A stretch of DNA of 64,000 nt, taken from contig CANQWG010000003.1 of NCBI GenBank assembly GCA_947627505.1, positions 5,504-69,503 on the forward strand, written 5' to 3'. Position numbers and translations under genes: made by a program. Source of the stretch: an uncultured Bacilli bacterium. Its GTDB lineage: Bacteria > Bacillota_I > Bacilli_A > RFN20 > CAG-449. Positions 2,469-11,702 of the stretch are shown here, one piece after another; position 1 is the stretch's first letter; each line of letters begins with the position of its first letter. The notes beneath the pieces are model-generated. The model made no database searches and was not told where the DNA came from. It saw nothing but the letters and a program-made list of their open reading frames with translations.

Positions 2469-2597
2469 TAATAATTTATTAAACTTTATAAAAAATTGAC
2501 AAGTGAACGCAAATGAAAGCGGACTATAAGCAAAAAAAAGTCATAATAGACAATGATGGCTTATTAAATAAATATTTATTCTTAACTTTAAAAACGT

Positions 2598-3437
2598 TTA
2601 ACTTAATAAATTTTTTATAACATTAGCAATATCATCTTGCACTTCTAAGGCTTTTTCTTTAACCTCATTAGGGACAAAAGCATACTGATTATTAATTCTT
2701 ATAAGATAAGCATTTTTAAGATTATATGTTAGTGCTTCAAATGGATACCTTATAATACTAGGTGTATTAAATCCTGCTCCTAATTCTAAAAATAAAATCT
2801 TCCTATCTTTATGATCATTTATAAATTTCTCAAAAGCCAAATTATGTTCATGCCAATTATCATCTTCAACAAAAAAACCATCTTTTCTTAAATTAACATC
2901 CATTTTACCACCACATATAGGACACTTAGGAATTAATCTAGTTGGTATTTTACATTCTTTATCTTCTTTTAACATTTCTTTTATCAGTTTTTCATTATCA
3001 TATAGTTTATTATGGCAAGCTCTTGCACATTGAATTTTTGTTAAAGCTCCTTGCACTTCAAATACTTTCTTTTCATCAAATCCAGCTTTTAAAAACTGAC
3101 GATCAACATTGGTTGTTAAAACAAAATAATCTTTATCTTTTATAAATTTAAATAAATCTAAATAAATATCTGTTACTTTCATTCCAACACATAAGTAATT
3201 GATGTGTTTTGCCCAATATGACCATCTTTCTTCTTCTGTATCAAAATCATAAAAACTTGAAGTATACATATCACTAAAGCCATATCTTTCAACAAGTTCA
3301 GGAAATAATTTTGCAAAATCTTTTGTTCCGTAATTAACTCCTGAGGCAGTAGATAGTCCTGCTCCGGCACCAATAACAATAGCATCTGTATTATTAATTT
3401 TCTCTTTAATTTTTAAATAAAGTTCTGTATTCACCAT
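2598..3437 (-). CDS. Sir2-family protein (divergent sirtuin, SirTM-like)
   Basis: IVIGAGAGLSTASG Rossmann motif, TTNVDRQF (cf. QNIDxLH), VFEVQGAL at the position of the catalytic HG, Zn ribbon Cx3C...CxxC; start at MVNTELY overlaps the stop of the macro gene. Confidence 0.75.
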   Translation of the reverse strand: MVNTELYLKIKEKINNTDAIVIGAGAGLSTASGVNYGTKDFAKLFPELVERYGFSDMYTSSFYDFDTEEERWSYWAKHINYLCVGMKVTDIYLDLFKFIKDKDYFVLTTNVDRQFLKAGFDEKKVFEVQGALTKIQCARACHNKLYDNEKLIKEMLKEDKECKIPTRLIPKCPICGGKMDVNLRKDGFFVEDDNWHEHNLAFEKFINDHKDRKILFLELGAGFNTPSIIRYPFEALTYNLKNAYLIRINNQYAFVPNEVKEKALEVQDDIANVIKNLLS

Positions 3438-4167
3438 AATCACTCTCACTAAAAACATTAAAAATAACTTTTAGATCCACATTATATTTACTTAATATTT
3501 CTTTCACCGAGTTATAAGCTATGAACTTAGCTTTTTTTATTGGATAAGCAAATAAACCTGTTGAAATTGAAGGAAAAGCAATCGATTGATATTCATTTTT
3601 AATTGCATATTCTAAAGATTTTTTATAACAACTTGCTAAATCTAATTCATTTTGTCTAGTTACTTCTTGATATACTTGAGGACCAACAGTTGTAACGACT
3701 TTTTGGCTTGGTAAATTATAAGCATTACACACAATGATATCCCCTGTAGGAATCGTTTTACCTTTTAAGATGTCATTACATTCTAATCTTAATCTCATTC
3801 CCGCATTCGTATGAATAATATTATCAATACATTGATGGTTTGGGTTAAAGCAACCAAGTCCATCTTGATTTCCAGCATTAACAATGACATCACATTTTAA
3901 AGTAGTAATATCACCCTTCCAAAGAATGATGTTTTGTTCGATTTCTTTTAAATCTTTTACATCTGTTATTATTTTATCTTTTAATTCTAATTTTAAATAT
4001 TCATCTTCTAAAAGTAAGATATTTTCATCGATTGGTTTTGGCATTCTTATATTAACAAGAGCTTTATATAATTTTTTTAAATCCTCATATGTAGAAGGTA
4101 TATTAACACCATAACCTTTCTCATCAATTAAATATTTGACAATTTTTAAAAGTAATTTTTGCTTCAT
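3406..4167 (-). CDS. macrodomain protein (ADP-ribose binding/hydrolase family) with ~100-aa N-terminal extension
   Basis: LWKGDITTLKCDVIVNAGNQDGLG matches the macro motif GDITxxxxDAIVNAAN; 253 aa. Confidence 0.75.
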   Translation of the reverse strand: MKQKLLLKIVKYLIDEKGYGVNIPSTYEDLKKLYKALVNIRMPKPIDENILLLEDEYLKLELKDKIITDVKDLKEIEQNIILWKGDITTLKCDVIVNAGNQDGLGCFNPNHQCIDNIIHTNAGMRLRLECNDILKGKTIPTGDIIVCNAYNLPSQKVVTTVGPQVYQEVTRQNELDLASCYKKSLEYAIKNEYQSIAFPSISTGLFAYPIKKAKFIAYNSVKEILSKYNVDLKVIFNVFSESDYGEYRTLFKN

Positions 4168-4189
4168 TTAAATCAATCCAATTGATCAC

Positions 4190-4588
4190 TTAATGTTCAC
4201 TGATTTCTTCAGGTGATGCATAAAAATTATATTTATAAGCTTTGATATTAACTAATTTATAAGTAACAAATCTTCCATCTCCTGCTTTATATAACTGAGA
4301 TGGACCTGTAGGATCATTAAGCATTGCTTCTTGAACTTCTATTCGATTATCTTCAACAACTTCCGCGGATACTCTAATCCAAGTTCCACCATCATACATT
4401 CCTGATATTTCAATTTTATTATTTTCTTTTAATTGCTTATAAGTATCTTTATGATTTCCAGTACAAATATAAGGATGTCCTTCAAACTCTGCAATACTTG
4501 AAAATGGTCTAACTCTAGGTTGATCTTTTTCCATGGTTGCAAGATAAAATACTTTTACTTTTTTTAATTCTTCAACTATCTTATTCAT
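4190..4588 (-). CDS. pyridoxamine 5'-phosphate oxidase-like FMN-binding split-barrel protein
   Basis: VFYLATMEKDQPRVRPFSSIAEFEGHPYICTGNHKDTYKQLKENNKIEI matches the PNPOx-like family pattern; 132 aa. Confidence 0.7.
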   Translation of the reverse strand: MNKIVEELKKVKVFYLATMEKDQPRVRPFSSIAEFEGHPYICTGNHKDTYKQLKENNKIEISGMYDGGTWIRVSAEVVEDNRIEVQEAMLNDPTGPSQLYKAGDGRFVTYKLVNIKAYKYNFYASPEEISEH

Positions 4589-4590
4589 TT

Positions 4591-5031
4591 TTATTTCTCC
4601 AATTTTAACTCTTTAAGAATGTCATTATATACATTCCCAATTTTTATTTCTTCCATTTGTTTTTTCATTGAATCTTGAATTTTTGCTAACTTATCATCCA
4701 TAGCCTTATGAATATTTTTTCCAATTGGACAATTGAGATTTGGATTACTATGAAAATGAAATAAACCATCTTCATCTAAACTATCAACAGCATTGAAAAC
4801 ATCTAATAATGATATATTATCAATGCTTTTCATTAGACCAATACCGGTTTTTCCTTGACTAATATCAAGGATTCCAGCTTCTCTTAATTTAGATATAACA
4901 GTTCTTACCGTGACAGGATTTGCACCCGTAGATGATGCAAGTAAAGAACTAGTAACAATGGTTTCTTTTTTAAAATATTCAATCGCACATATAATATGGA
5001 CACCAATTGTAAATTGATTTGTAATTTGCAT
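4591..5031 (-). CDS. Rrf2 family transcriptional regulator
   Basis: N-terminal wHTH SSLLASSTGANPVTVRTVISKLREAGIL typical of Rrf2/BadM; internal promoter TTGCCA-17-TATATA and RBS AGGTGAG upstream. Confidence 0.8.
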   Translation of the reverse strand: MQITNQFTIGVHIICAIEYFKKETIVTSSLLASSTGANPVTVRTVISKLREAGILDISQGKTGIGLMKSIDNISLLDVFNAVDSLDEDGLFHFHSNPNLNCPIGKNIHKAMDDKLAKIQDSMKKQMEEIKIGNVYNDILKELKLEK

Positions 5032-5096
5032 TTCATCTCACCTTATATAATATTTTACCATATTTTTGGCAAGATGTCATTTAGAATACTACAAGT

Positions 5097-5867
5097 CTAA
5101 AATTTACCATTGCTATTTGCCCATTTAGATTTATCTAAAATGGTTTCCATAACATCCCAGTGTTCGGCAATTTTTCCGTTTTCAACTCGCCAAAGATCAT
5201 AATAAGCAGTTGGTTTTCCACCAAAGGTTCCTTCAGATACGCCTAAGGCATAATCGCCACATGCTAAAACCATATGCACTTTATCATAAATCATTTGTAT
5301 GCCAGCTTTTGCTAATGCTTCTAAAGCAAGACCAAGACCACTTAAACCATCCGCAATATCTGTATTATGTTGTAAGTACATATCTCCATTAAAATAGGAT
5401 GTTGTTTTTTCTGGAGCCTTATTTTGCATTACATCATGTAAGAAATTTTTAACTATTTCTCGTGTTTTTTCGGTATTTTTATTGGGAGTAATCAAAGTAT
5501 TGCCATCAATTTGTGTTCTTCCACTTGGATTAGGTTTAGCAAGTAAAGCTAAATTATCCCAATGTTCAGCAATTAAGCCATCTTCAAATCTAAAAATATC
5601 AAATGCTACTTGTTCACCTGCTCCTGCAAAGTTATAAATTGATTGAAGAACAACTTTATCTTTATCTTCAAACTCTCTTATCACTTTTAATGTTGTTTTA
5701 ATGGGAGCTGATGCTAAATAAGTAACACTGCTAATAAAGGCATCTTTTCCTGTTGCGTAAGATAAATTGTGTTGAATGTAGTCTTCTTTTAACAATTTTT
5801 CGACTACTTCTACATCACCGCTTGTGAATGTTGAAATTAATGCTTTTGCTTTTTCAATATTTGTCAT
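5097..5867 (-). CDS. tandem SnoaL-like / NTF2-like domain protein
   Basis: Two ~125-aa repeats, each with the Y[IL]QHN motif and ending IAEHWD; start at MTNIEK with RBS GGAGGG; ORF-track start (5933) is probably upstream of the real start. Confidence 0.75.
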   Translation of the reverse strand: MTNIEKAKALISTFTSGDVEVVEKLLKEDYIQHNLSYATGKDAFISSVTYLASAPIKTTLKVIREFEDKDKVVLQSIYNFAGAGEQVAFDIFRFEDGLIAEHWDNLALLAKPNPSGRTQIDGNTLITPNKNTEKTREIVKNFLHDVMQNKAPEKTTSYFNGDMYLQHNTDIADGLSGLGLALEALAKAGIQMIYDKVHMVLACGDYALGVSEGTFGGKPTAYYDLWRVENGKIAEHWDVMETILDKSKWANSNGKF

Positions 5868-5915
5868 TTTTAAACCCTCCATTTGACAATTCATATTTGC
5901 ATTTTTATCAAATAC

Positions 5916-5952
5916 ACTTGTAGCATATAGCATTACAAGTTATCTTGTCAAA
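5916..5952 (-). promoter_or_regulatory. promoter of the SnoaL-Rrf2-PNPOx-macro-Sir2 operon with overlapping ACTTGTA-N11-TACAAGT inverted repeat
   Basis: Minus strand TTGACA (5947-5952) then ~16 nt to TATATG; perfect 7-bp inverted repeat arms at 5916-5922 and 5934-5940 between the -35 and -10; lies ~50 nt upstream of the RBS. Confidence 0.5.
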
Positions 5953-6250
5953 TAGTTTATTACAAGTTTTAAAAATTTTTACAATTACATAAAATGCTTT
6001 CGCCAAACATCGGTATCTCTATAATTTTAGACATAGTTCGGTTAAAGAATCTTAGATACCTTTCAAATATATTCCCTAATGAAAACATTGGTCTCCTTTA
6101 AAAATATAGTATACTGTTAAACATTTATGAAAGAGATTATTAATAAGCCAAAAAGCTCTAATCCATTTTTTTGGCTATTTAATATGCATTACACAGCATA
6201 AAAATTGCATCATTATAAATTTTTCCCTTACAATTTTCTAACATAGAAGT

Positions 6251-6276
6251 AAAAAAGCCCTAAAATAGGGCTTTTA
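6251..6276 (-). terminator. rho-independent terminator (minus strand)
   Basis: AGCCCTAAAATAGGGCT hairpin followed on the minus strand by a U6 run. Confidence 0.6.
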
Positions 6277-6310
6277 ATACCAAATGGCAAAAGAGAACTA
6301 TTTTGATACA

Positions 6311-6360
6311 ATGCACGCAGTTGCACGCAAATGAACGCAAATGAACGCAGATGCAAGCAG
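6311..6360. repeat. five tandem 10-bp repeats, consensus ATGMACGCAR
   Basis: atgcacgcag ttgcacgcaa atgaacgcaa atgaacgcag atgcaagcag; GC-rich within AT-rich non-coding DNA; exact 10-bp period. Confidence 0.9.
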
Positions 6361-6370
6361 GCTAAAGGCA

Positions 6371-6408
6371 AACAAAAAACCACCAAAGTCATATAAACTC
6401 TAGTGGTT
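6371..6408 (-). terminator. rho-independent terminator for the ABC/hypothetical operon
   Basis: Minus strand AACCACTAgag...cTTGGTGGTT stem (one G.U) followed by UUUUUUG. Confidence 0.55.
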
Positions 6409-6580
6409 ATTATTTAATTTACCATTTTTCTTTTTGCTGATTTAGCAAGTTCTTTTAGGATCCGTAGGTTTTAAATGATGAAATTCGTAATTCATATCTT
6501 TTACCTTTTTTTGAAAAAGACATATTTCTTTATCTTTACAAATTGTTCTCCTAATAAAGCTTTGTCTAGTTCAGTCAAAA

Positions 6581-7201
6581 TTATTCCTCAACAATCTCTA
6601 CACTATATTTTTCATCAAGACCATGTTCTTTTAAAAAGGCATTGAATTCTTCTGAAAGCTGTTTTGCTGAATATTCTCTATTTTCATTGGAATTAACTTT
6701 ATGAGCATTGATGTTTGCTTTTGTCTTTTGATTGAGTTCATCAATTTTTCTTGCAGTATCCGCATTTGCATTTTTAGCACCATTTTTTATGTTTTCAATT
6801 ACAAGACGGCATTTTGCTTTAAAGCCTTTCGTGTGAAGAAATTCTTTAAATTCTTGATTTTCTTTTGAGTTTCTTACTGCTTCGATATTAGCTTTATCTT
6901 GCTCATGTTGACGATGAGCATTTTCTTTCATTTGACTAAAGGCTACTTTAAATTTAGCCTTAATTCCTTTTGTATTACAAAATTCTTTAAATTGCTTTGA
7001 AATTTCTTCTTCAGAAACGGCATAATCAGTTTTATAGTTTTCCATATTATTTTTCCTCCTATTTTCAATATTTTTTTGATTATTTTCTGAATGGATTATT
7101 AATATTTTAATTTTTTCTTTAAAAGTTTTAGCTTCCATGAATTGATGAAATTCATCATCACTTATTACATTGTTTGTATAAGTATCATTATTATTTTTCA
7201 T
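6581..7201 (-). CDS. hypothetical protein with three internal ~35-aa repeats (EFKEF..TKG[IF]KAK core)
   Basis: 206-aa charged, Lys/Glu/Asn-rich ORF, last gene of the ABC operon; repeats visible by eye. Confidence 0.5.
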   Translation of the reverse strand: MKNNNDTYTNNVISDDEFHQFMEAKTFKEKIKILIIHSENNQKNIENRRKNNMENYKTDYAVSEEEISKQFKEFCNTKGIKAKFKVAFSQMKENAHRQHEQDKANIEAVRNSKENQEFKEFLHTKGFKAKCRLVIENIKNGAKNANADTARKIDELNQKTKANINAHKVNSNENREYSAKQLSEEFNAFLKEHGLDEKYSVEIVEE

Positions 7202-7225
7202 TTTAAATGATCATCACCTCAATTT

Positions 7226-8008
7226 TTAAACCAAACTTGTTTTGTTAAGGATGAATTTACTTACAAAAGCAAGTCCAATACTAAATAAGATTCCGCCTAC
7301 AAAACACATAATGACATTTAGAATTCCTGCATCCAGTGGTGTCATCATAGGAATCATCATAAATAAAAGCATTCCACCACCTAAAACACAAATAATAGAT
7401 AGCCATAATTTGGTTTTTGCAACACACGCTAACGTTAAAGCGATAGAAATAAAGATAAGTAAAATAAACATTTTTGAAAGTAAACAGCAAATGATTGTAC
7501 CTACATTAAATCCATCCATACTAAATGGAAGTCCAGCAATTGCTCCACCAACCATTCCACCAATAAAGAATAAAAGGAGCATGACTATACTTGCGATAAA
7601 GCAAGTAATGGTTTTCGATATAACATATTCCATTCTCTTTGCTCTAATAGTAAATAAATTTTTTACATAGCCACTTCTGAAATCTTCACTGACAAAGATA
7701 CAAGCAAAGATTGCAACAATGAAATAAATGAGATTAATATTACACATACTGGTTAAATCCATGGACATACCAGCATTTGATGTAGCACCTAATATTTGCC
7801 ATACATTCGTAAATGTTTCCATTACTGTTTCTTCTCCTGTTGAGGGATCTACAACGGAGGTATTCCCCATAAAACTAGTCATTACAAGAATTAAAACGGG
7901 AATCATGAAACATATGCCGAACATTATATAGACTAAAGGAGTCTTAAACATTCTTCTACTATCTACTTTTAACATGCTCTTAAGATTATTTAAATTCGCT
8001 TTATTCAT
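7226..8008 (-). CDS. ABC-2 family transporter permease (paralog B)
   Basis: 260 aa with ~6 predicted TM segments; start overlaps the stop of the upstream ATPase. Confidence 0.75.
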   Translation of the reverse strand: MNKANLNNLKSMLKVDSRRMFKTPLVYIMFGICFMIPVLILVMTSFMGNTSVVDPSTGEETVMETFTNVWQILGATSNAGMSMDLTSMCNINLIYFIVAIFACIFVSEDFRSGYVKNLFTIRAKRMEYVISKTITCFIASIVMLLLFFIGGMVGGAIAGLPFSMDGFNVGTIICCLLSKMFILLIFISIALTLACVAKTKLWLSIICVLGGGMLLFMMIPMMTPLDAGILNVIMCFVGGILFSIGLAFVSKFILNKTSLV

Positions 8009-8910
8009 TATAATGTACCTCCTTTATCCATGAGATTAATGTAATATTCTTCTAAGTTAATTTTTTTAGTTTGGACATAAGTAGGTAAAATATTTTCACT
8101 ATATAGATAACTTACAACGTCTTTTGTCAAACAAGAATCATAAACACGAAGTTCATCATTTTCTTCAATAACCTTTTTATATCTTTTTTCTAATGCCCGT
8201 TTTGCTTCTATATTATCTTTTGCTTTTATCGCAACATAGGTCGGACATTCTTTTTCTAATTCTTCCGCTGTCATTTCTTTTATCATTTTTCCATTTCGAA
8301 TGATTCCATAATGCGTCGCTATTTTTTCAAGTTCACCTAAAATATGTGATGAAATTAAAACAGTACAACTTAAATTTTTTGTAATATCTATTAATACTTC
8401 TCGCATGATTCTCATTCCATCAGCATCAAGACCATTGATAGGTTCATCTAAAATTAATAGTTTAGGATTTCCAAGTAATGCAAAAGCAATACCAATTCTT
8501 TGTTTCATACCTAATGAACAATTTTTAAATTTATTCGAGGCTGATCCTTCCATTCTTACAATTTTTAAGACTCTTCTAATTTCTTCATTTTCATTTTTAA
8601 TACCTAAATTAGCAGCCTGGATTTTCATATTATCCCAAACACTGATATTAGGAAAACATCCTGGACTTTCAATTAAAACACCTATTTGAGACCTAATTTC
8701 TTGATCATGATAATCTTTATCAAATAATTTAATTGTGCCACTATTTGGTCTAATGAGTCCACATATGAGCTTTTCAGTTGTGGATTTACCAGAACCATTT
8801 TCGCCAATAAAACCATAAATTGCACCCATAGGTACTGTCATATTTAAATTTGATAAAGCTTGTTTTTCTCCATAATTTTTGGTTAAATTTCTAATTTCAA
8901 TTGCATTCAT
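8008..8910 (-). CDS. ABC transporter ATP-binding protein (paralog B)
   Basis: Walker A GENGSGKST, signature SLGMKQR, Walker B LLILDEP, H-loop SSHIL. Confidence 0.9.
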   Translation of the reverse strand: MNAIEIRNLTKNYGEKQALSNLNMTVPMGAIYGFIGENGSGKSTTEKLICGLIRPNSGTIKLFDKDYHDQEIRSQIGVLIESPGCFPNISVWDNMKIQAANLGIKNENEEIRRVLKIVRMEGSASNKFKNCSLGMKQRIGIAFALLGNPKLLILDEPINGLDADGMRIMREVLIDITKNLSCTVLISSHILGELEKIATHYGIIRNGKMIKEMTAEELEKECPTYVAIKAKDNIEAKRALEKRYKKVIEENDELRVYDSCLTKDVVSYLYSENILPTYVQTKKINLEEYYINLMDKGGTL

Positions 8911-8923
8911 AATTATTTACTCC

Positions 8924-9745
8924 TTAATAACAATCTCTTTTTGATAACACTAAGGTTCCCACTATGTTATAAATAACAGCCCAAACTAGACTTATGCCAA
9001 GACAAGTAATTAAACTGATGATATTTGATGATAAACAAGCATTCACGGATGAACCATATAAAAAGATATTTAAAATAGATGAATTCCCAACAATTGATGC
9101 TGCGCCAATGACAGGAATACCTGTTCCAAAAACAAAACATAAGGCGATAGAAATACCAAATTTTCTTCTAAAAATAATGTTAATAAAAGTATATAAACTT
9201 GCCCACCCTAAACTCATAATCATCTTGCCTAAAATGGCTAAAATAAGTGAACCAACATTTATGGTAAATGGAAGACCTGTAAAAGCACCTGAAAGAGTGC
9301 CCCCTATAAGATAAGTTATACACATACACATCATTGAAAAAGCACTAATAATGGTCTTAGACATCATATAATCTTGTTTTGTTGAATGAGTTGTAAATAA
9401 TTGTTTTACATAACCACTATGGTAATCATGTCCAATAAAGATTGAAATCATAATTCCCCCAAAAATAAAGACCATATTCATATTGGCATACTCACCAATA
9501 TTACTTATAACATACAAGGGTTTATCGGCAGCTATGATTTGCCAAGCATTAGTAAACATTCCTGCCGTTTCATTCGTATCCCCCATAGATCCCATAGAAA
9601 CTAAAGCTGGAATAATCGCAGCAATAAACAAAAAGATATAAAACAAAGGCGTATGAAATAAACGATAAAAATCGACACTTAACATTCCTTTAATCCTTTT
9701 AAAAAAAGATGGTTGTTCAAATTCTAAAGTGATTTCTTTTTCCAT
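8924..9745 (-). CDS. ABC-2 family transporter permease (paralog A)
   Basis: 273 aa polytopic membrane protein with the same architecture as 7226-8008. Confidence 0.75.
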   Translation of the reverse strand: MEKEITLEFEQPSFFKRIKGMLSVDFYRLFHTPLFYIFLFIAAIIPALVSMGSMGDTNETAGMFTNAWQIIAADKPLYVISNIGEYANMNMVFIFGGIMISIFIGHDYHSGYVKQLFTTHSTKQDYMMSKTIISAFSMMCMCITYLIGGTLSGAFTGLPFTINVGSLILAILGKMIMSLGWASLYTFINIIFRRKFGISIALCFVFGTGIPVIGAASIVGNSSILNIFLYGSSVNACLSSNIISLITCLGISLVWAVIYNIVGTLVLSKRDCY

Positions 9746-10644
9746 TATTTATTTACCTCCTTACTCATTAATTCAATATAATATTCTTCTAAACCAATTT
9801 TGTTTTGAATAATCTTACTAACTTCAAAGTGATTTGAAAGTAAAATATTCATCACTTTTTCTGTATCATCTTCATCAAAGATTTTTAAATTATTATCTAA
9901 CCTAACATCATTAAAATGTTTTTTTAAAATATTATAAGCTTCTTTATTATTATTCGTTTCAACTTCAATAAACGTCCGATTTCTTGCTTCCATTTCTTTT
10001 GCGGAAATTTCTTGAATCATTTTACCTTGACGAATAATTCCATAATGAGTTGCTATTTTTTCAAGTTCACCTAAAATATGTGATGAGATTAAAACGGTGC
10101 AATGATAATTTTTAGTAATATCCGCCAATATTTCTCGCATCATTTTCATTCCCTCAGTATCTAAACCATTGATAGGTTCATCTAAAATAAGTAAGGCTGG
10201 ATTTCCAAGTAATGCCATGGCAATACCAACTCTTTGTTTCATTCCTAAAGAACATTTTTTAAATGGAAGTTTAATGTGTTCTTCCATTTTCACAATCTTT
10301 AATACCCTATGAATTTCTTCATCAATATTTTCAATTCCTAAATTTAGTGCTTGCATTTTCAAATTAGCATAAATACTAGAGTTTGGAAAACATCCGGCAT
10401 TTTCAATTAAGGCACCTACTCTTGCTCTTACACCTGGGTCAGTATAATCTCTACCAAATAATTTAATTTCACCCTTATTTGGTACTAAGTGACCACAAAT
10501 ACATTTTTCAGTTGTTGATTTACCTGAGCCATTTTCACCTATAAATCCATAAATTGCTCCAACAGGTACAGTCATATGAAAATCATCAAGTGCATACAAA
10601 CCGCGAAAACTTTTTGATAAATTTTTTATTTCTATTGCGTTCAT
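9745..10644 (-). CDS. ABC transporter ATP-binding protein (paralog A)
   Basis: ~60 percent identical to 8008-8910 by eye (GAIYGFIGENGSGKSTTEK identical); start at MNAIEI with RBS AAAGGAG. Confidence 0.9.
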   Translation of the reverse strand: MNAIEIKNLSKSFRGLYALDDFHMTVPVGAIYGFIGENGSGKSTTEKCICGHLVPNKGEIKLFGRDYTDPGVRARVGALIENAGCFPNSSIYANLKMQALNLGIENIDEEIHRVLKIVKMEEHIKLPFKKCSLGMKQRVGIAMALLGNPALLILDEPINGLDTEGMKMMREILADITKNYHCTVLISSHILGELEKIATHYGIIRQGKMIQEISAKEMEARNRTFIEVETNNNKEAYNILKKHFNDVRLDNNLKIFDEDDTEKVMNILLSNHFEVSKIIQNKIGLEEYYIELMSKEVNK

Positions 10645-10660
10645 TGTTTCTCCTTTCAAA

Positions 10661-10748
10661 ACCACATTTGTTGTTTTTACACTAGTATTATAGTATAATT
10701 TGTTTGTAATTTACCCAACAATAAATCAAACATGTGTTGTTTTCACAA
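10661..10748. promoter_or_regulatory. divergent promoter region with two ~20-bp direct repeats (candidate TetR operators)
   Basis: ACATTTGTTGTTTTTACAC (10664-10682) and ACATGTGTTGTTTTCACAA (10729-10747); a TATAAT on each strand between them. Confidence 0.4.
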
Positions 10749-10785
10749 AAATATTATTATTCAAAACATTATACAAGGAGTAATT

Positions 10786-11373
10786 ATGGGAAAATCAGAA
10801 GTCAAATATCAAAATACATCTATTAAAATGGATAAGGCTATGTTAAAGCTATTGGAAGAAAAAGATTTTTTAGATATTAGTGTATCAGAAATTTGTATAG
10901 AAGCTGGTGTAAATAGATCTACATTTTATGATCATTATTTAAATACCAGTGATTTGTTAAAAGAAACACAAAAAGAAATTATGAAAGATTTTACTCTTTA
11001 TTTTAATAATTATTCTATTGAGTTCCCTGACTTTTCAAAAAATAATAGTGAAGAGTTTCTTTTCATATCGCCTAAATATCTAATTCCCTATTTAGAATAT
11101 GTAAAAAAACATAAAAAACTTTTTAAAACTTATTTATCTAATCTTTCTACTTTCAATGTCGATGAAGCTTATAGTGATTTATTTGAATATGTTTTGAAAC
11201 CTGTCTTTATTAGAATGGGTGTTGAGAATGATTTAATTATGAACTATATGTCAAAGTTTTACTTATCTGGTGTAACTGCAATTGTAAATGAGTGGATTAA
11301 TCGTGATTGTCAAGATGATATGTTATTTGTTGTTGAAATAATCATTGCCTGCATACCACAACAAACAAGTTAA
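10786..11373 (+). CDS. TetR/AcrR family transcriptional regulator
   Basis: HTH ISVSEICIEAGVNRSTFYDHY; start at MGKSEV with RBS AAGGAG; divergent from the ABC operon. Confidence 0.8.
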   Translation: MGKSEVKYQNTSIKMDKAMLKLLEEKDFLDISVSEICIEAGVNRSTFYDHYLNTSDLLKETQKEIMKDFTLYFNNYSIEFPDFSKNNSEEFLFISPKYLIPYLEYVKKHKKLFKTYLSNLSTFNVDEAYSDLFEYVLKPVFIRMGVENDLIMNYMSKFYLSGVTAIVNEWINRDCQDDMLFVVEIIIACIPQQTS

Positions 11374-11411
11374 TATCAAAAATTTCTTCCAAGTTAAATA
11401 CATCAAAAAAA

Positions 11412-11458
11412 GGTCCTAGAAAAATGCAACTTCGCACTTACTAAGACCTATTTTTCTT
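11412..11458 (+). terminator. hairpin plus T-run after tetR; copy 2 of the conserved hairpin element
   Basis: GGTCCTAG...CTAAGACC stem, loop AAAAATGCAACTTCGCACTTA, then TATTTTTCTTT. Confidence 0.55.
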
Positions 11459-11490
11459 TAAAACTACATAGACGTTGAGAGTCGAACTCT

Positions 11491-11543
11491 ATAAAAAACA
11501 GACTGACACCATTGCAAACTTGTTTGCATTAGTATCAATCTGG
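11491..11543 (-). terminator. compound rho-independent terminator downstream of tRNA-His
   Basis: Minus strand CAGATTGA...TCAGTCTG outer stem enclosing TGCAAACaagTTTGCA, followed by UUUUUUAU. Confidence 0.6.
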
Positions 11544-11554
11544 TTCTTTCAATA

Positions 11555-11631
11555 TGGGGCGAACGATGGGAATCGAACCCACGAGTGTCTGGTTCACAGC
11601 CAGATGTGTTAACCACTTCACCACATTCGCC
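11555..11631 (-). tRNA. tRNA-His (anticodon GUG) with encoded G-1 and 3' CCA
   Basis: Minus-strand sequence GGCGAATG...GTGGGTTCGATTCCCATCGTTCGCCCCA; anticodon loop CUGUGAA; G-1:C73 pair characteristic of tRNA-His. Confidence 0.9.
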
Positions 11632-11702
11632 ATTAGCGTTTTAATTCTAACCAAAGATAAGGTTTTTGTAAAGAGTTATTTTATCAAAAACCTAAAACGC
11701 TT

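Follow-up and report, generated by a model that had tools for sequence, protein, structure and literature searches.

A variable 10-bp tandem repeat as part of a conserved cassette-end element in uncultured gut Bacilli

The 64-kb stretch of DNA analysed here (the window), from an uncultured Bacilli bacterium, contains a tandem array of five units with a 10-bp period at 6310-6360, which raises the question of what kind of element this array, denoted R, belongs to and how it relates to a similar 20-mer at 2503-2522. We are confident that R is the variable-copy module of a conserved non-coding element of ~300 nt, which forms the end of gene cassettes and adjoins a palindromic site at which such cassettes are joined. 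Read on the + strand from 6310, the units are in order AATGCACGCA GTTGCACGCA AATGAACGCA AATGAACGCA GATGCAAGCA. The five exact-period repeats described in an earlier note on this DNA are real: TRF reports 6311-6360 with period 10, 5.0 copies, 82% matches, no indels and a score of 58. The local GC content is 0.42-0.46 versus 0.2-0.3 in the spacer around it, and the array is the sole GC-rich tandem repeat within the 64 kb. The genes on either side, encoding a 206-aa protein (6581-7201) and a SnoaL-domain protein (5097-5933), both lie on the minus strand. The gap between them had been described as 650 bp of non-coding DNA; the length stands (647 bp), but the gap holds the remnant of a hexapeptide-acetyltransferase pseudogene, whose counterpart (Hexapep) stands intact behind the 206-aa gene in relatives at a greater distance (L017, L020, L023) and is half-deleted in L010. 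Two terminator-like sites on the minus strand, between which the earlier note had placed the array, were recovered at 6408-6378 and 6275-6253 (2 found versus 0.2 expected in shuffles).

The element can be split into five segments, which read a, R, b, c and d along the minus strand of the window. Segment b is defined as TTGTATCAAAATGGTACTCTTTTGCCAT, and in the window the last repeat unit shares 2 nt with the start of this 28-nt segment. Segment c starts with ATTGAAAGAACCAGATTGATACAATGTGTCAGTCTGTTTTTT and consists of a hairpin and a T-run; segment d comprises ~100 nt with a bidirectional terminator at its end. In the window, c runs from ATTGAAAGAACCAGATTGATAC to GTGTCAGTCTGTTTTTT, with hairpin and T-run, and the bidirectional terminator AGGTCTTAG..CTAGGACCTTTTTTT closes d. 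Some c copies have 18-20 extra nt (TAATGCAAACAAGTTTGC, itself a small hairpin) inserted in the hairpin loop; the tRNA-His copy of the window (11484-11553) and copy A of L010 (1651-1706) share this insertion, and other c copies do not have it. A reading of b, c and d as tRNA-like or tmRNA sequence was rejected, as ARAGORN finds neither there.

A b-specific pattern, scanned against one genome per species, matched at 53 loci, 21 of which are true copies; the others are chance matches in coding DNA of unrelated taxa. All 21 copies lie in 14 metagenome-assembled genomes (MAGs) of the rabbit-gut 'Lapin' series (uncultured Bacilli, Anaeroplasma, Anaeroplasmataceae), often several per genome. BLAST added further copies, such that about 26 non-redundant copies could be compared. 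The element was not found in phage collections, plasmid collections, IMG/VR or JGI metagenomes, it is not present at homologues of the 206-aa protein with ~70% identity (L017-L024), and no description of it or of its 10-bp repeat was found in the literature. In L010 and L011, at 96% identity, the same block of TetR, ABC and 206-aa genes as in the window has array elements of ~300 nt on both sides, with 6 and 3 units, respectively. L014 carries a degenerate copy, and the hairpin of segment a is missing from several copies (L052, L054, L067). In L029 (704-777 and ~700 nt upstream of it), a group II intron (Rfam RF00029, 49 bits) has its 3' end ~12 nt ahead of the TATTTATAGCC spacer, which is followed by an array of 3 units; the a terminator hairpin is normally found at this position. 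Class C introns target terminators, and the placement of the intron is consistent with this habit.

The copies share a recurrent layout (segment BLAST, junction table, ARAGORN): a tRNA ending in CCAT, then c and d, 1 to 5 kb of variable cargo, a, R and b, and finally a different flank. In 8 loci c directly follows the CCAT of a tRNA, and the a-R-b end is found 1-5 kb downstream in the same orientation. The tRNAs are those for His (window, L046, L054), Leu (L014, L026), Gly (L047, L059) and Val (L061); segment b ends in GCCAT and resembles a tRNA 3' end. In other cases the cassettes are stacked, with b directly followed by c (twice in L010 and in L033, three times in L062, and in L046, L059 and L076). 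The boundaries are sharp. A cassette with TetR and membrane-protein genes, with 92-95% identity across three MAGs, stops exactly where b stops, and three unrelated right flanks follow. The TetR/ABC cassette of the window is 95.7% identical over its whole length, from the first base of c, to L010 1643-6753, and is preceded by tRNA-His in the window and by the b of another cassette in L010. From the sharp boundaries and the recurrent layout it follows that the window holds a 5.27-kb cassette (11553-6284) directly after tRNA-His. Its TetR gene (10786-11373) is on the + strand, the five other cargo genes are on the minus strand. The 206-aa protein among them is rich in Lys, Glu and Asn and has no Pfam domain; its 259 homologues, mostly from gut MAGs, are usually encoded beside TetR and ABC-2 transporter genes. 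The cargo of the other cassettes is variable and rich in defence genes, including an EcoRI-type methylase, GmrSD/HNH, ThsB-TIR, caspase-like genes, a type I methylase, AAA_14/DUF4143 ATPases, ABC transporters and a Fic protein.

The terminator just outside the right end of the window cassette was probably native to tRNA-His and has been displaced. Sites resembling a terminator come after 6 of the 17 right ends that consist of b only, versus 8.7% of random windows, which would fit insertion between a tRNA and its native terminator.

Where b and c meet, they form an imperfect palindrome of 56 bp, with 20-nt arms that are 85% complementary, 16 nt apart and centred on CA. The homology breaks at ..CCA/T or ..GCCA/N (the stroke marks the break) in all 8 tRNA/c and 17 b/flank junctions. 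Attachment sites of the attP type used by serine integrases have the same size, symmetry and central crossover dinucleotide. Judged by its sequence, b/c looks like an attachment site of a large serine recombinase (LSR), with the crossover at the CA of the tRNA. Genes for LSRs with the domains Resolvase, Recombinase and Zn_ribbon are indeed found next to some copies, and in these relatives the last LSR gene leads directly into a. L010 and L011 have one LSR gene at the edge of the locus, followed by a-R-b/c with 6 units; L083 encodes a helix-turn-helix (HTH) protein (87 aa, sigma-70-region-4-like), a SHOCT protein and two LSRs (437 and 527 aa), followed by a-R-b/c with 7 units. No other copies adjoin intact LSR genes, and these carry the longest arrays, together with a full b/c; b/c junctions in general are seen only within tandem arrays or at a contig end (L083). 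Segment a of the copies without a recombinase keeps the last codons of the LSR gene. The window has no LSR gene by tblastn and retains a remnant of a only. Against NCBIfam, the LSRs score 104-107 bits for CcrB (equivalog cut-off 900) and 88 bits for XisF (cut-off 375), a distant resemblance at most.

The 20-mer at 2503-2522 had been noted as related to the array, and the two are indeed paralogues. Exact copies of the 14-mer TGAACGCAAATGAA stand at 2504-2517 and 6332-6345; with up to two mismatches it has six matches, a number reached in 0 of 100 shuffles. The similarity between the two loci, in direct orientation, spans ~60 nt past the 20-mer. This extension, together with a better-preserved copy in the 97% identical L046 that bridges the two loci, marks the similarity as homology and not chance: the orthologous site of L046 has a fuller version, with the last LSR codons, a canonical hairpin and the same two degenerate units. 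In the window, what follows those units aligns with the d terminator. The second copy (L2) is therefore made up of a, two units and the d terminator, with b, c and part of d lost by deletion in between, and is the fossil junction of two further cassettes. The copy at 2503-2522 is the decayed right end of the adjacent cassette, the one with the sirtuin module. In the window, the SnoaL gene has no left end (c-d) before it. As both copies are right ends, the sirtuin/macro module lies between two right ends, and not between a left and a right end; the two copies, which the earlier note considered as possible boundaries of this module, are instead equivalent right ends of two neighbouring cassettes. 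That note had also asked for a relative without 2523-6310. L046 is such a relative, with 97% identical flanks, but it lacks the TetR/ABC cassette as well as the sirtuin module, and has other genes between tRNA-His-c-d and the fossil L2. The interval from tRNA-His to the LysR gene is a cassette hotspot. The five-gene sirtuin module resembles sirtuin/macrodomain ADP-ribosylation operons and behaves here as movable cargo.

Table 1. Segments of the cassette-end element and neighbouring features in the window (full-length segment a is given for comparison).
Feature	Position	Strand	Description and basis
R, five 10-bp units	6310..6360	-	minus-strand reading TGCTTGCATC TGCGTTCATT TGCGTTCATT TGCGTGCAAC TGCGTGCATT; TRF, sequence, parsing against 25 other copies
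a (full copies)			last ~40 nt of LSR gene, terminator hairpin and spacer TTTTTGTTTGCTTATAGCC
a (partial, window)	6361..6408	-	hairpin AACCACTAGAGTTTATATGACTTTGGTGGTT, T-run and spacer TTTTTTGTTTGCCTTTAGCC; terminator scan, alignments to L010, L083, L051
b (right-end segment; left arm of 56-bp palindrome; ends ..GCCA/T)	6284..6311	-	TTGTATCAAAATAGTTCTCTTTTGCCAT; segment BLAST, homology stop, inverted repeat
c + d (cassette left end; c is the right palindrome arm)	11386..11553	-	92% identical to L010 copy A; segment BLAST, sequence
tRNA-His (GTG)	11555..11630	-	cassette starts directly past CCA end; ARAGORN, Rfam, junction table
TetR/ABC cassette cargo	6581..11373	.	TetR, two ABC ATPase/ABC-2 permease pairs, 206-aa protein; Pfam
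Hexapeptide-repeat acetyltransferase gene remnant	6453..6580	-	L010 retains 300 bp more; small open reading frame 6455-6523 inside
Rho-independent terminator	6253..6275	-	immediately outside cassette end; terminator scan
SnoaL - Rrf2 - PNPOx-like - Macro - SIR2 module	2598..5933	-	cargo between two right-end copies; Pfam
Second copy (L2)	2503..2579	-	decayed a hairpin and two degenerate units (CGCTTTCATT TGCGTTCACT), b and c deleted; alignment
d-type bidirectional terminator after L2	2412..2480	-	terminates convergent LysR gene; alignment with three d copies

The number of units per array ranges from 0 (degenerate) to 6 across the 26 non-redundant copies, and to 7 with L083 included. The 26 copies contain 16 distinct units. 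Between arrays, six or seven unit types are found again and again in the same succession (TGCGTGCAAT, TGCGTTCATT, TGCGTGCATC, TGCTTGCATT, TGCGTTCACT, TGCGTGCAAC, TGCGTGCATT), and hence the shorter arrays are nested deletions of the longest one (7 units, L083) with few duplications. Within a unit, conservation is high at positions 1-8 (1.3-2.0 bits) and weak at positions 9-10 (0.8-1.1 bits). The number of units differs even between near-identical cassettes, with 2, 1 and 4 units in L047, L059 and L049, and 5, 3, 2 and 3 units in the TetR/ABC cassette of the window, L010 (copy B), L051 and L072, respectively. With head-to-tail repeats and a copy number that is polymorphic at orthologous loci, R is a variable number tandem repeat (VNTR). 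Degenerate arrays persist in L014, L031, L033 (second copy) and L048. The 8-mer core TGCGTGCA has 0 occurrences outside arrays in the 64-kb window, and its sub-words are at or below expectation; a Chi-like or genome-wide skewed motif was ruled out on this basis. Logan contigs from three sequencing runs end exactly at the array or at the end of segment d (L002/L003 at ~6301, L006/L009 at ~6329, L085 at ~11404). Such breaks are expected because the repeat is multi-copy, and may in addition reflect heterogeneity of copy number within a sample.

For the role of R, the reading that we favour, with about an even chance of being correct, is that the cassette-end element is moved by LSRs and that the array provides phased accessory binding sites. 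Cassettes with the order c d - cargo - a R b would insert after a tRNA CCA, or after the b of a preceding cassette, giving rise to tandem arrays. Autonomous versions would be those with HTH, SHOCT and two LSR genes upstream of a-R-b/c and a complete array of 6-7 units, while recombinase-less cassettes, including that of the window, would retain their ends and progressively lose units. It is plausible that the paired LSRs move the cassettes through b/c, with the tRNA CA as crossover. The 10-bp units, each with 8 conserved and 2 variable bp and spaced at one per helical turn from the outer edge of the attachment arm, may then be bound by a protein with an accessory or regulatory role in the recombination module; candidate binders are the 87-aa HTH protein, seen in L083, or either LSR. 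The features that favour a phased binding array are the 8+2 architecture, the exact helical period of 10 bp, the abutment on the arm, and the presence of full arrays with intact LSR genes.

Several observations weigh against this reading. The differences of 2/1/4 and 5/3/2/3 units between near-identical cassettes imply that one unit suffices for persistence, a pattern that a neutral minisatellite would explain equally well. Copies adjoining LSR genes number two or three, and their LSRs are 98% identical, hence the association of the longest arrays with intact LSR genes is nearly a single case. LSR relatives with 71-73% identity share the gene order but lack a, R, b and c, and to our knowledge the characterised LSRs need no accessory DNA sites. 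The 3' ends of the tRNAs have no obvious similarity to arm b except for CCA, which leaves the target recognition by the LSRs unexplained. Neither an excision circle nor an empty attB was seen, and every b/c junction lies inside a chromosome-like contig. Contig look-ups with the exact proteins of the flanking genes found no empty tRNA-His site, since they returned the same strain only. The excised circle of one cassette would join ...TTTTGCCA to TATTGAAAGAACC, and the empty site would join the tRNA-His end ...CGCCCCA to TTTGGTATTAAAAGCCC. Finally, the pattern used to search for copies lay inside b, and decay of b relative to R is therefore not judgeable from them. In the LSR relatives, a conserved tract TTTTT(G)CGGGGGGGG / TTTTTGGGGGGGG lies downstream of the recombinase gene and replaces the array (L078 at ~11640-11660; L081 at ~2990-3010); this tract may be their own attachment core.

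The best-surviving alternative, possible although we consider it on balance unlikely, is a neutral minisatellite. According to it, slippage occurred once in the spacer between recombinase terminator and attachment arm, and the array has since hitch-hiked with the cassettes, its copy number drifting by slippage or unequal exchange. The fast change in copy number and the survival of one-unit and degenerate copies point in this direction, as does the appearance of the arrays as progressive deletions. Moreover, three control 10-mers of matched composition turn up as arrays in IMG/VR about as often (2, 2 and 2 hits versus 5 for the real unit). However, the units are not homogenised, as at least six types occur in the same order in 14 species-level genomes. 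The variation is focused at positions 9-10 and 6, which resembles constraint on an 8-bp core more than recent slippage, and the full array coincides with intact recombinase genes. If the array is a neutral minisatellite, it would still be useful as a hypervariable marker of cassette ends and strain identity.

A more far-reaching version of the favoured reading, which we regard as speculative and rather improbable, is a cassette system with similarity to integrons and SCC (staphylococcal cassette chromosome) in which R is a new accessory DNA element. The array would bind a protein of the module and mark the recombinase-proximal arm, thereby controlling directionality or recombinase expression. 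The paired-LSR module would capture and stack self-insulated cassettes (defence, transport, sirtuin/macro) at the universal CCA ends of tRNAs. If the cassette reading as such holds, a lineage of gut Bacilli shuffles its defence and transport genes by means of an LSR pair and a portable end element of ~300 bp; the system would then parallel SCC, with tRNAs as targets, and integrons, with serine recombinases. It might also be of interest for genome engineering, where serine integrases are established tools, as the target of this one may be quasi-universal. LSR sites are regarded as self-sufficient, and a sequence-specific accessory array next to one would be out of the ordinary.

Transcription of R into a small or antisense RNA containing the repeats is improbable in our view; the earlier note had raised a small RNA as one possibility for the segment between the two terminators. 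An extended -10 promoter in b (+ strand, ATGGCA-17-TGATACAAT) would fire into the repeats, whose n copies of UGCACGCA would act as single-stranded seed or sponge, and the transcript would end at the a hairpin or run antisense to the 3' end of the recombinase gene. A promoter-like site facing the repeats is indeed predicted on the + strand at 6284-6312 (ATGGCA-17-TACAAT, with TG), the motif TTGATACAAT also occurs in arm c, facing outward, the a hairpin lies between an A-run and a T-run, and the repeat region is predicted to be unstructured, as seed regions are. Yet the promoter-like motif is itself the conserved inverted-repeat arm of b/c, and its conservation is already explained by the palindrome. 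The U-tract after the hairpin is poor on the + strand (AUUAUUUAAUUU), and the hairpin is absent from the three copies named above. Rfam gave no relevant match, with the window searched at the gathering threshold and L010, L014 and the element alone at an E-value threshold. Likewise, neither R with b nor the inter-terminator segment has a predicted fold beyond that of shuffled sequences on either strand (z from -0.4 to +1.2); the strong fold z-score of the whole 171-nt region is due to the two terminators, each of which has a separate explanation. As for coding potential, a small open reading frame on the + strand (ATGGCAAAAGAG..., MAKE(N/Y)..) was rejected, with no ribosome-binding site, variable upstream sequence and a frame that shifts with every unit, and a 54-aa open reading frame on the minus strand (6228-6392) has no Pfam match.

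The idea that the repeats are direct-repeat boundaries of a 3.8-kb sirtuin island is closest to our result among the three readings of the earlier note, in that R is part of a cassette-end element and the two copies are homologous, in direct orientation, and separated by a module that a close relative lacks; the geometry differs, since these are not attL and attR of one island (both are right ends, with no c-d before SnoaL) and the copy at 6310-6360 adjoins the TetR/ABC cassette without a gap and is inherited together with it in the window, L010, L051 and L072, while an operator array for Rrf2 or LysR is implausible because the array travels with unrelated cargo, and without either regulator, in 14 genomes, so that we consider both proposals highly improbable.

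The closest analogues of the system are SCC-type composite islands and the LSR attachment sites of phages and transposons; the unusual feature of the element is the repeat array beside an LSR-type site. For the first group, we compared SCC/SCCmec and enterococcal elements of the ccrAB type (PMC3068701). The likeness includes paired LSR genes, cassettes that insert site-specifically behind the 3' end of a conserved housekeeping gene and accumulate in tandem, 'pseudo' cassettes that have the shared ends but no recombinase, and an accessory or defence cargo. Composite arrays that include recombinase-less cassettes with shared ends are found in L010 (two junctions), L062 (three), L033 (two), L076 (two) and the window (L2 and the junction at R, L1). 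In contrast to SCC, the target is the CCA end of several tRNAs (His, Leu, Gly, Val) instead of rlmH (orfX), the LSRs are not Ccr orthologues, and the ends carry a terminator and a 10-bp array that SCC ends do not have. The second group comprises the attP sites of large serine integrases, such as Bxb1 (PMC1470463) as well as phiC31, A118 and TnpX/TndX. These share with b/c a size of ~50 bp, an imperfect dyad around a central dinucleotide, a recombinase gene beside the site and a crossover at the break in homology. The known sites are regarded as minimal, and need no accessory DNA, whereas a phased array of 10-70 bp abuts one arm of the putative site here, and many different tRNAs appear to be targets.

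Arrays of arm-type or accessory sites are familiar from other systems, for example the arm sites of lambda Int, the Cox boxes of P2 and Apl boxes of 186, and, for ribbon-helix-helix (RHH) proteins, the parC arrays bound by ParR and the heptads bound by omega. Like these arrays of 7-11-bp units, R consists of direct repeats in helical spacing and variable number next to a recombination core, overlapping a promoter-like site; the known cases, however, come from plasmid partition or from systems with a tyrosine recombinase. No Xis, Cox or RHH gene was seen with the element, the sole small DNA-binding candidate being the HTH protein of sigma-70-region-4 type. Integrons resemble the system in their arrays of cassettes with the same orientation, a conserved recombination site between cassettes, and a recombinase gene at one end of the array (L010). 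They differ in that the recombinase here is a serine and not a tyrosine recombinase (no IntI, attI or attC), the cassettes have their own regulators and terminators, and the site is a duplex 56-bp palindrome and not a folded attC. The pneumococcal BOX elements are mosaics of boxA-(boxB)n-boxC with a 45-bp unit. They are similar in being non-coding mosaics with an inner module of variable copy number, present in multiple copies per genome and associated with terminators; the unit here has 10 bp instead of 45 bp, and the copies are placed at cassette and tRNA CCA ends and not scattered.

Similar arrays are found in JGI metagenomes, where the bare periodic pattern TGCGTKCANN x3 has at least 120 matches. 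We do not treat them as a cross-phylum family of relatives of the rabbit-gut element, on the basis of the control 10-mers described above, which indicate that arbitrary 10-bp arrays are common in such collections; their units have the core of those in the window, and the controls suggest that this may be a coincidence. The loci, which include a widespread and stereotyped kind of array (L086-L205, e.g. L098 6558-6587, L120 592-631, L128 2640-2699), consist of (TGCGTTCATC / TGCGTGCATC / TGCGTTCATT)n ending in TGCGG, or have the palindromic form (GATGAACGCA)n...(TGCGTTCATC)n TGCGG. They often have inverted units (CCGCAGATGAACGCAGAT...) 20-60 nt upstream, the arms forming a long hairpin, and lie 8-50 nt past the stop codons of unrelated genes on contigs with a GC content of 0.33-0.72. 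The inverted terminal arrays of L130 were set aside, as the contig (2000-4600) is a near-perfect palindrome centred near 3300 and probably an assembly chimera. In a low-GC lineage, seven contigs (L100, L106, L108, L129, L141, L160, L194) carry (TGCGTTCATT)n right after a terminator hairpin, with 4 to 11 copies (again a VNTR), and look like one orthologous locus, as the neighbouring proteins cluster. In IMG/VR, two phage-like contigs (L207, L210) have similar arrays beside terminators.

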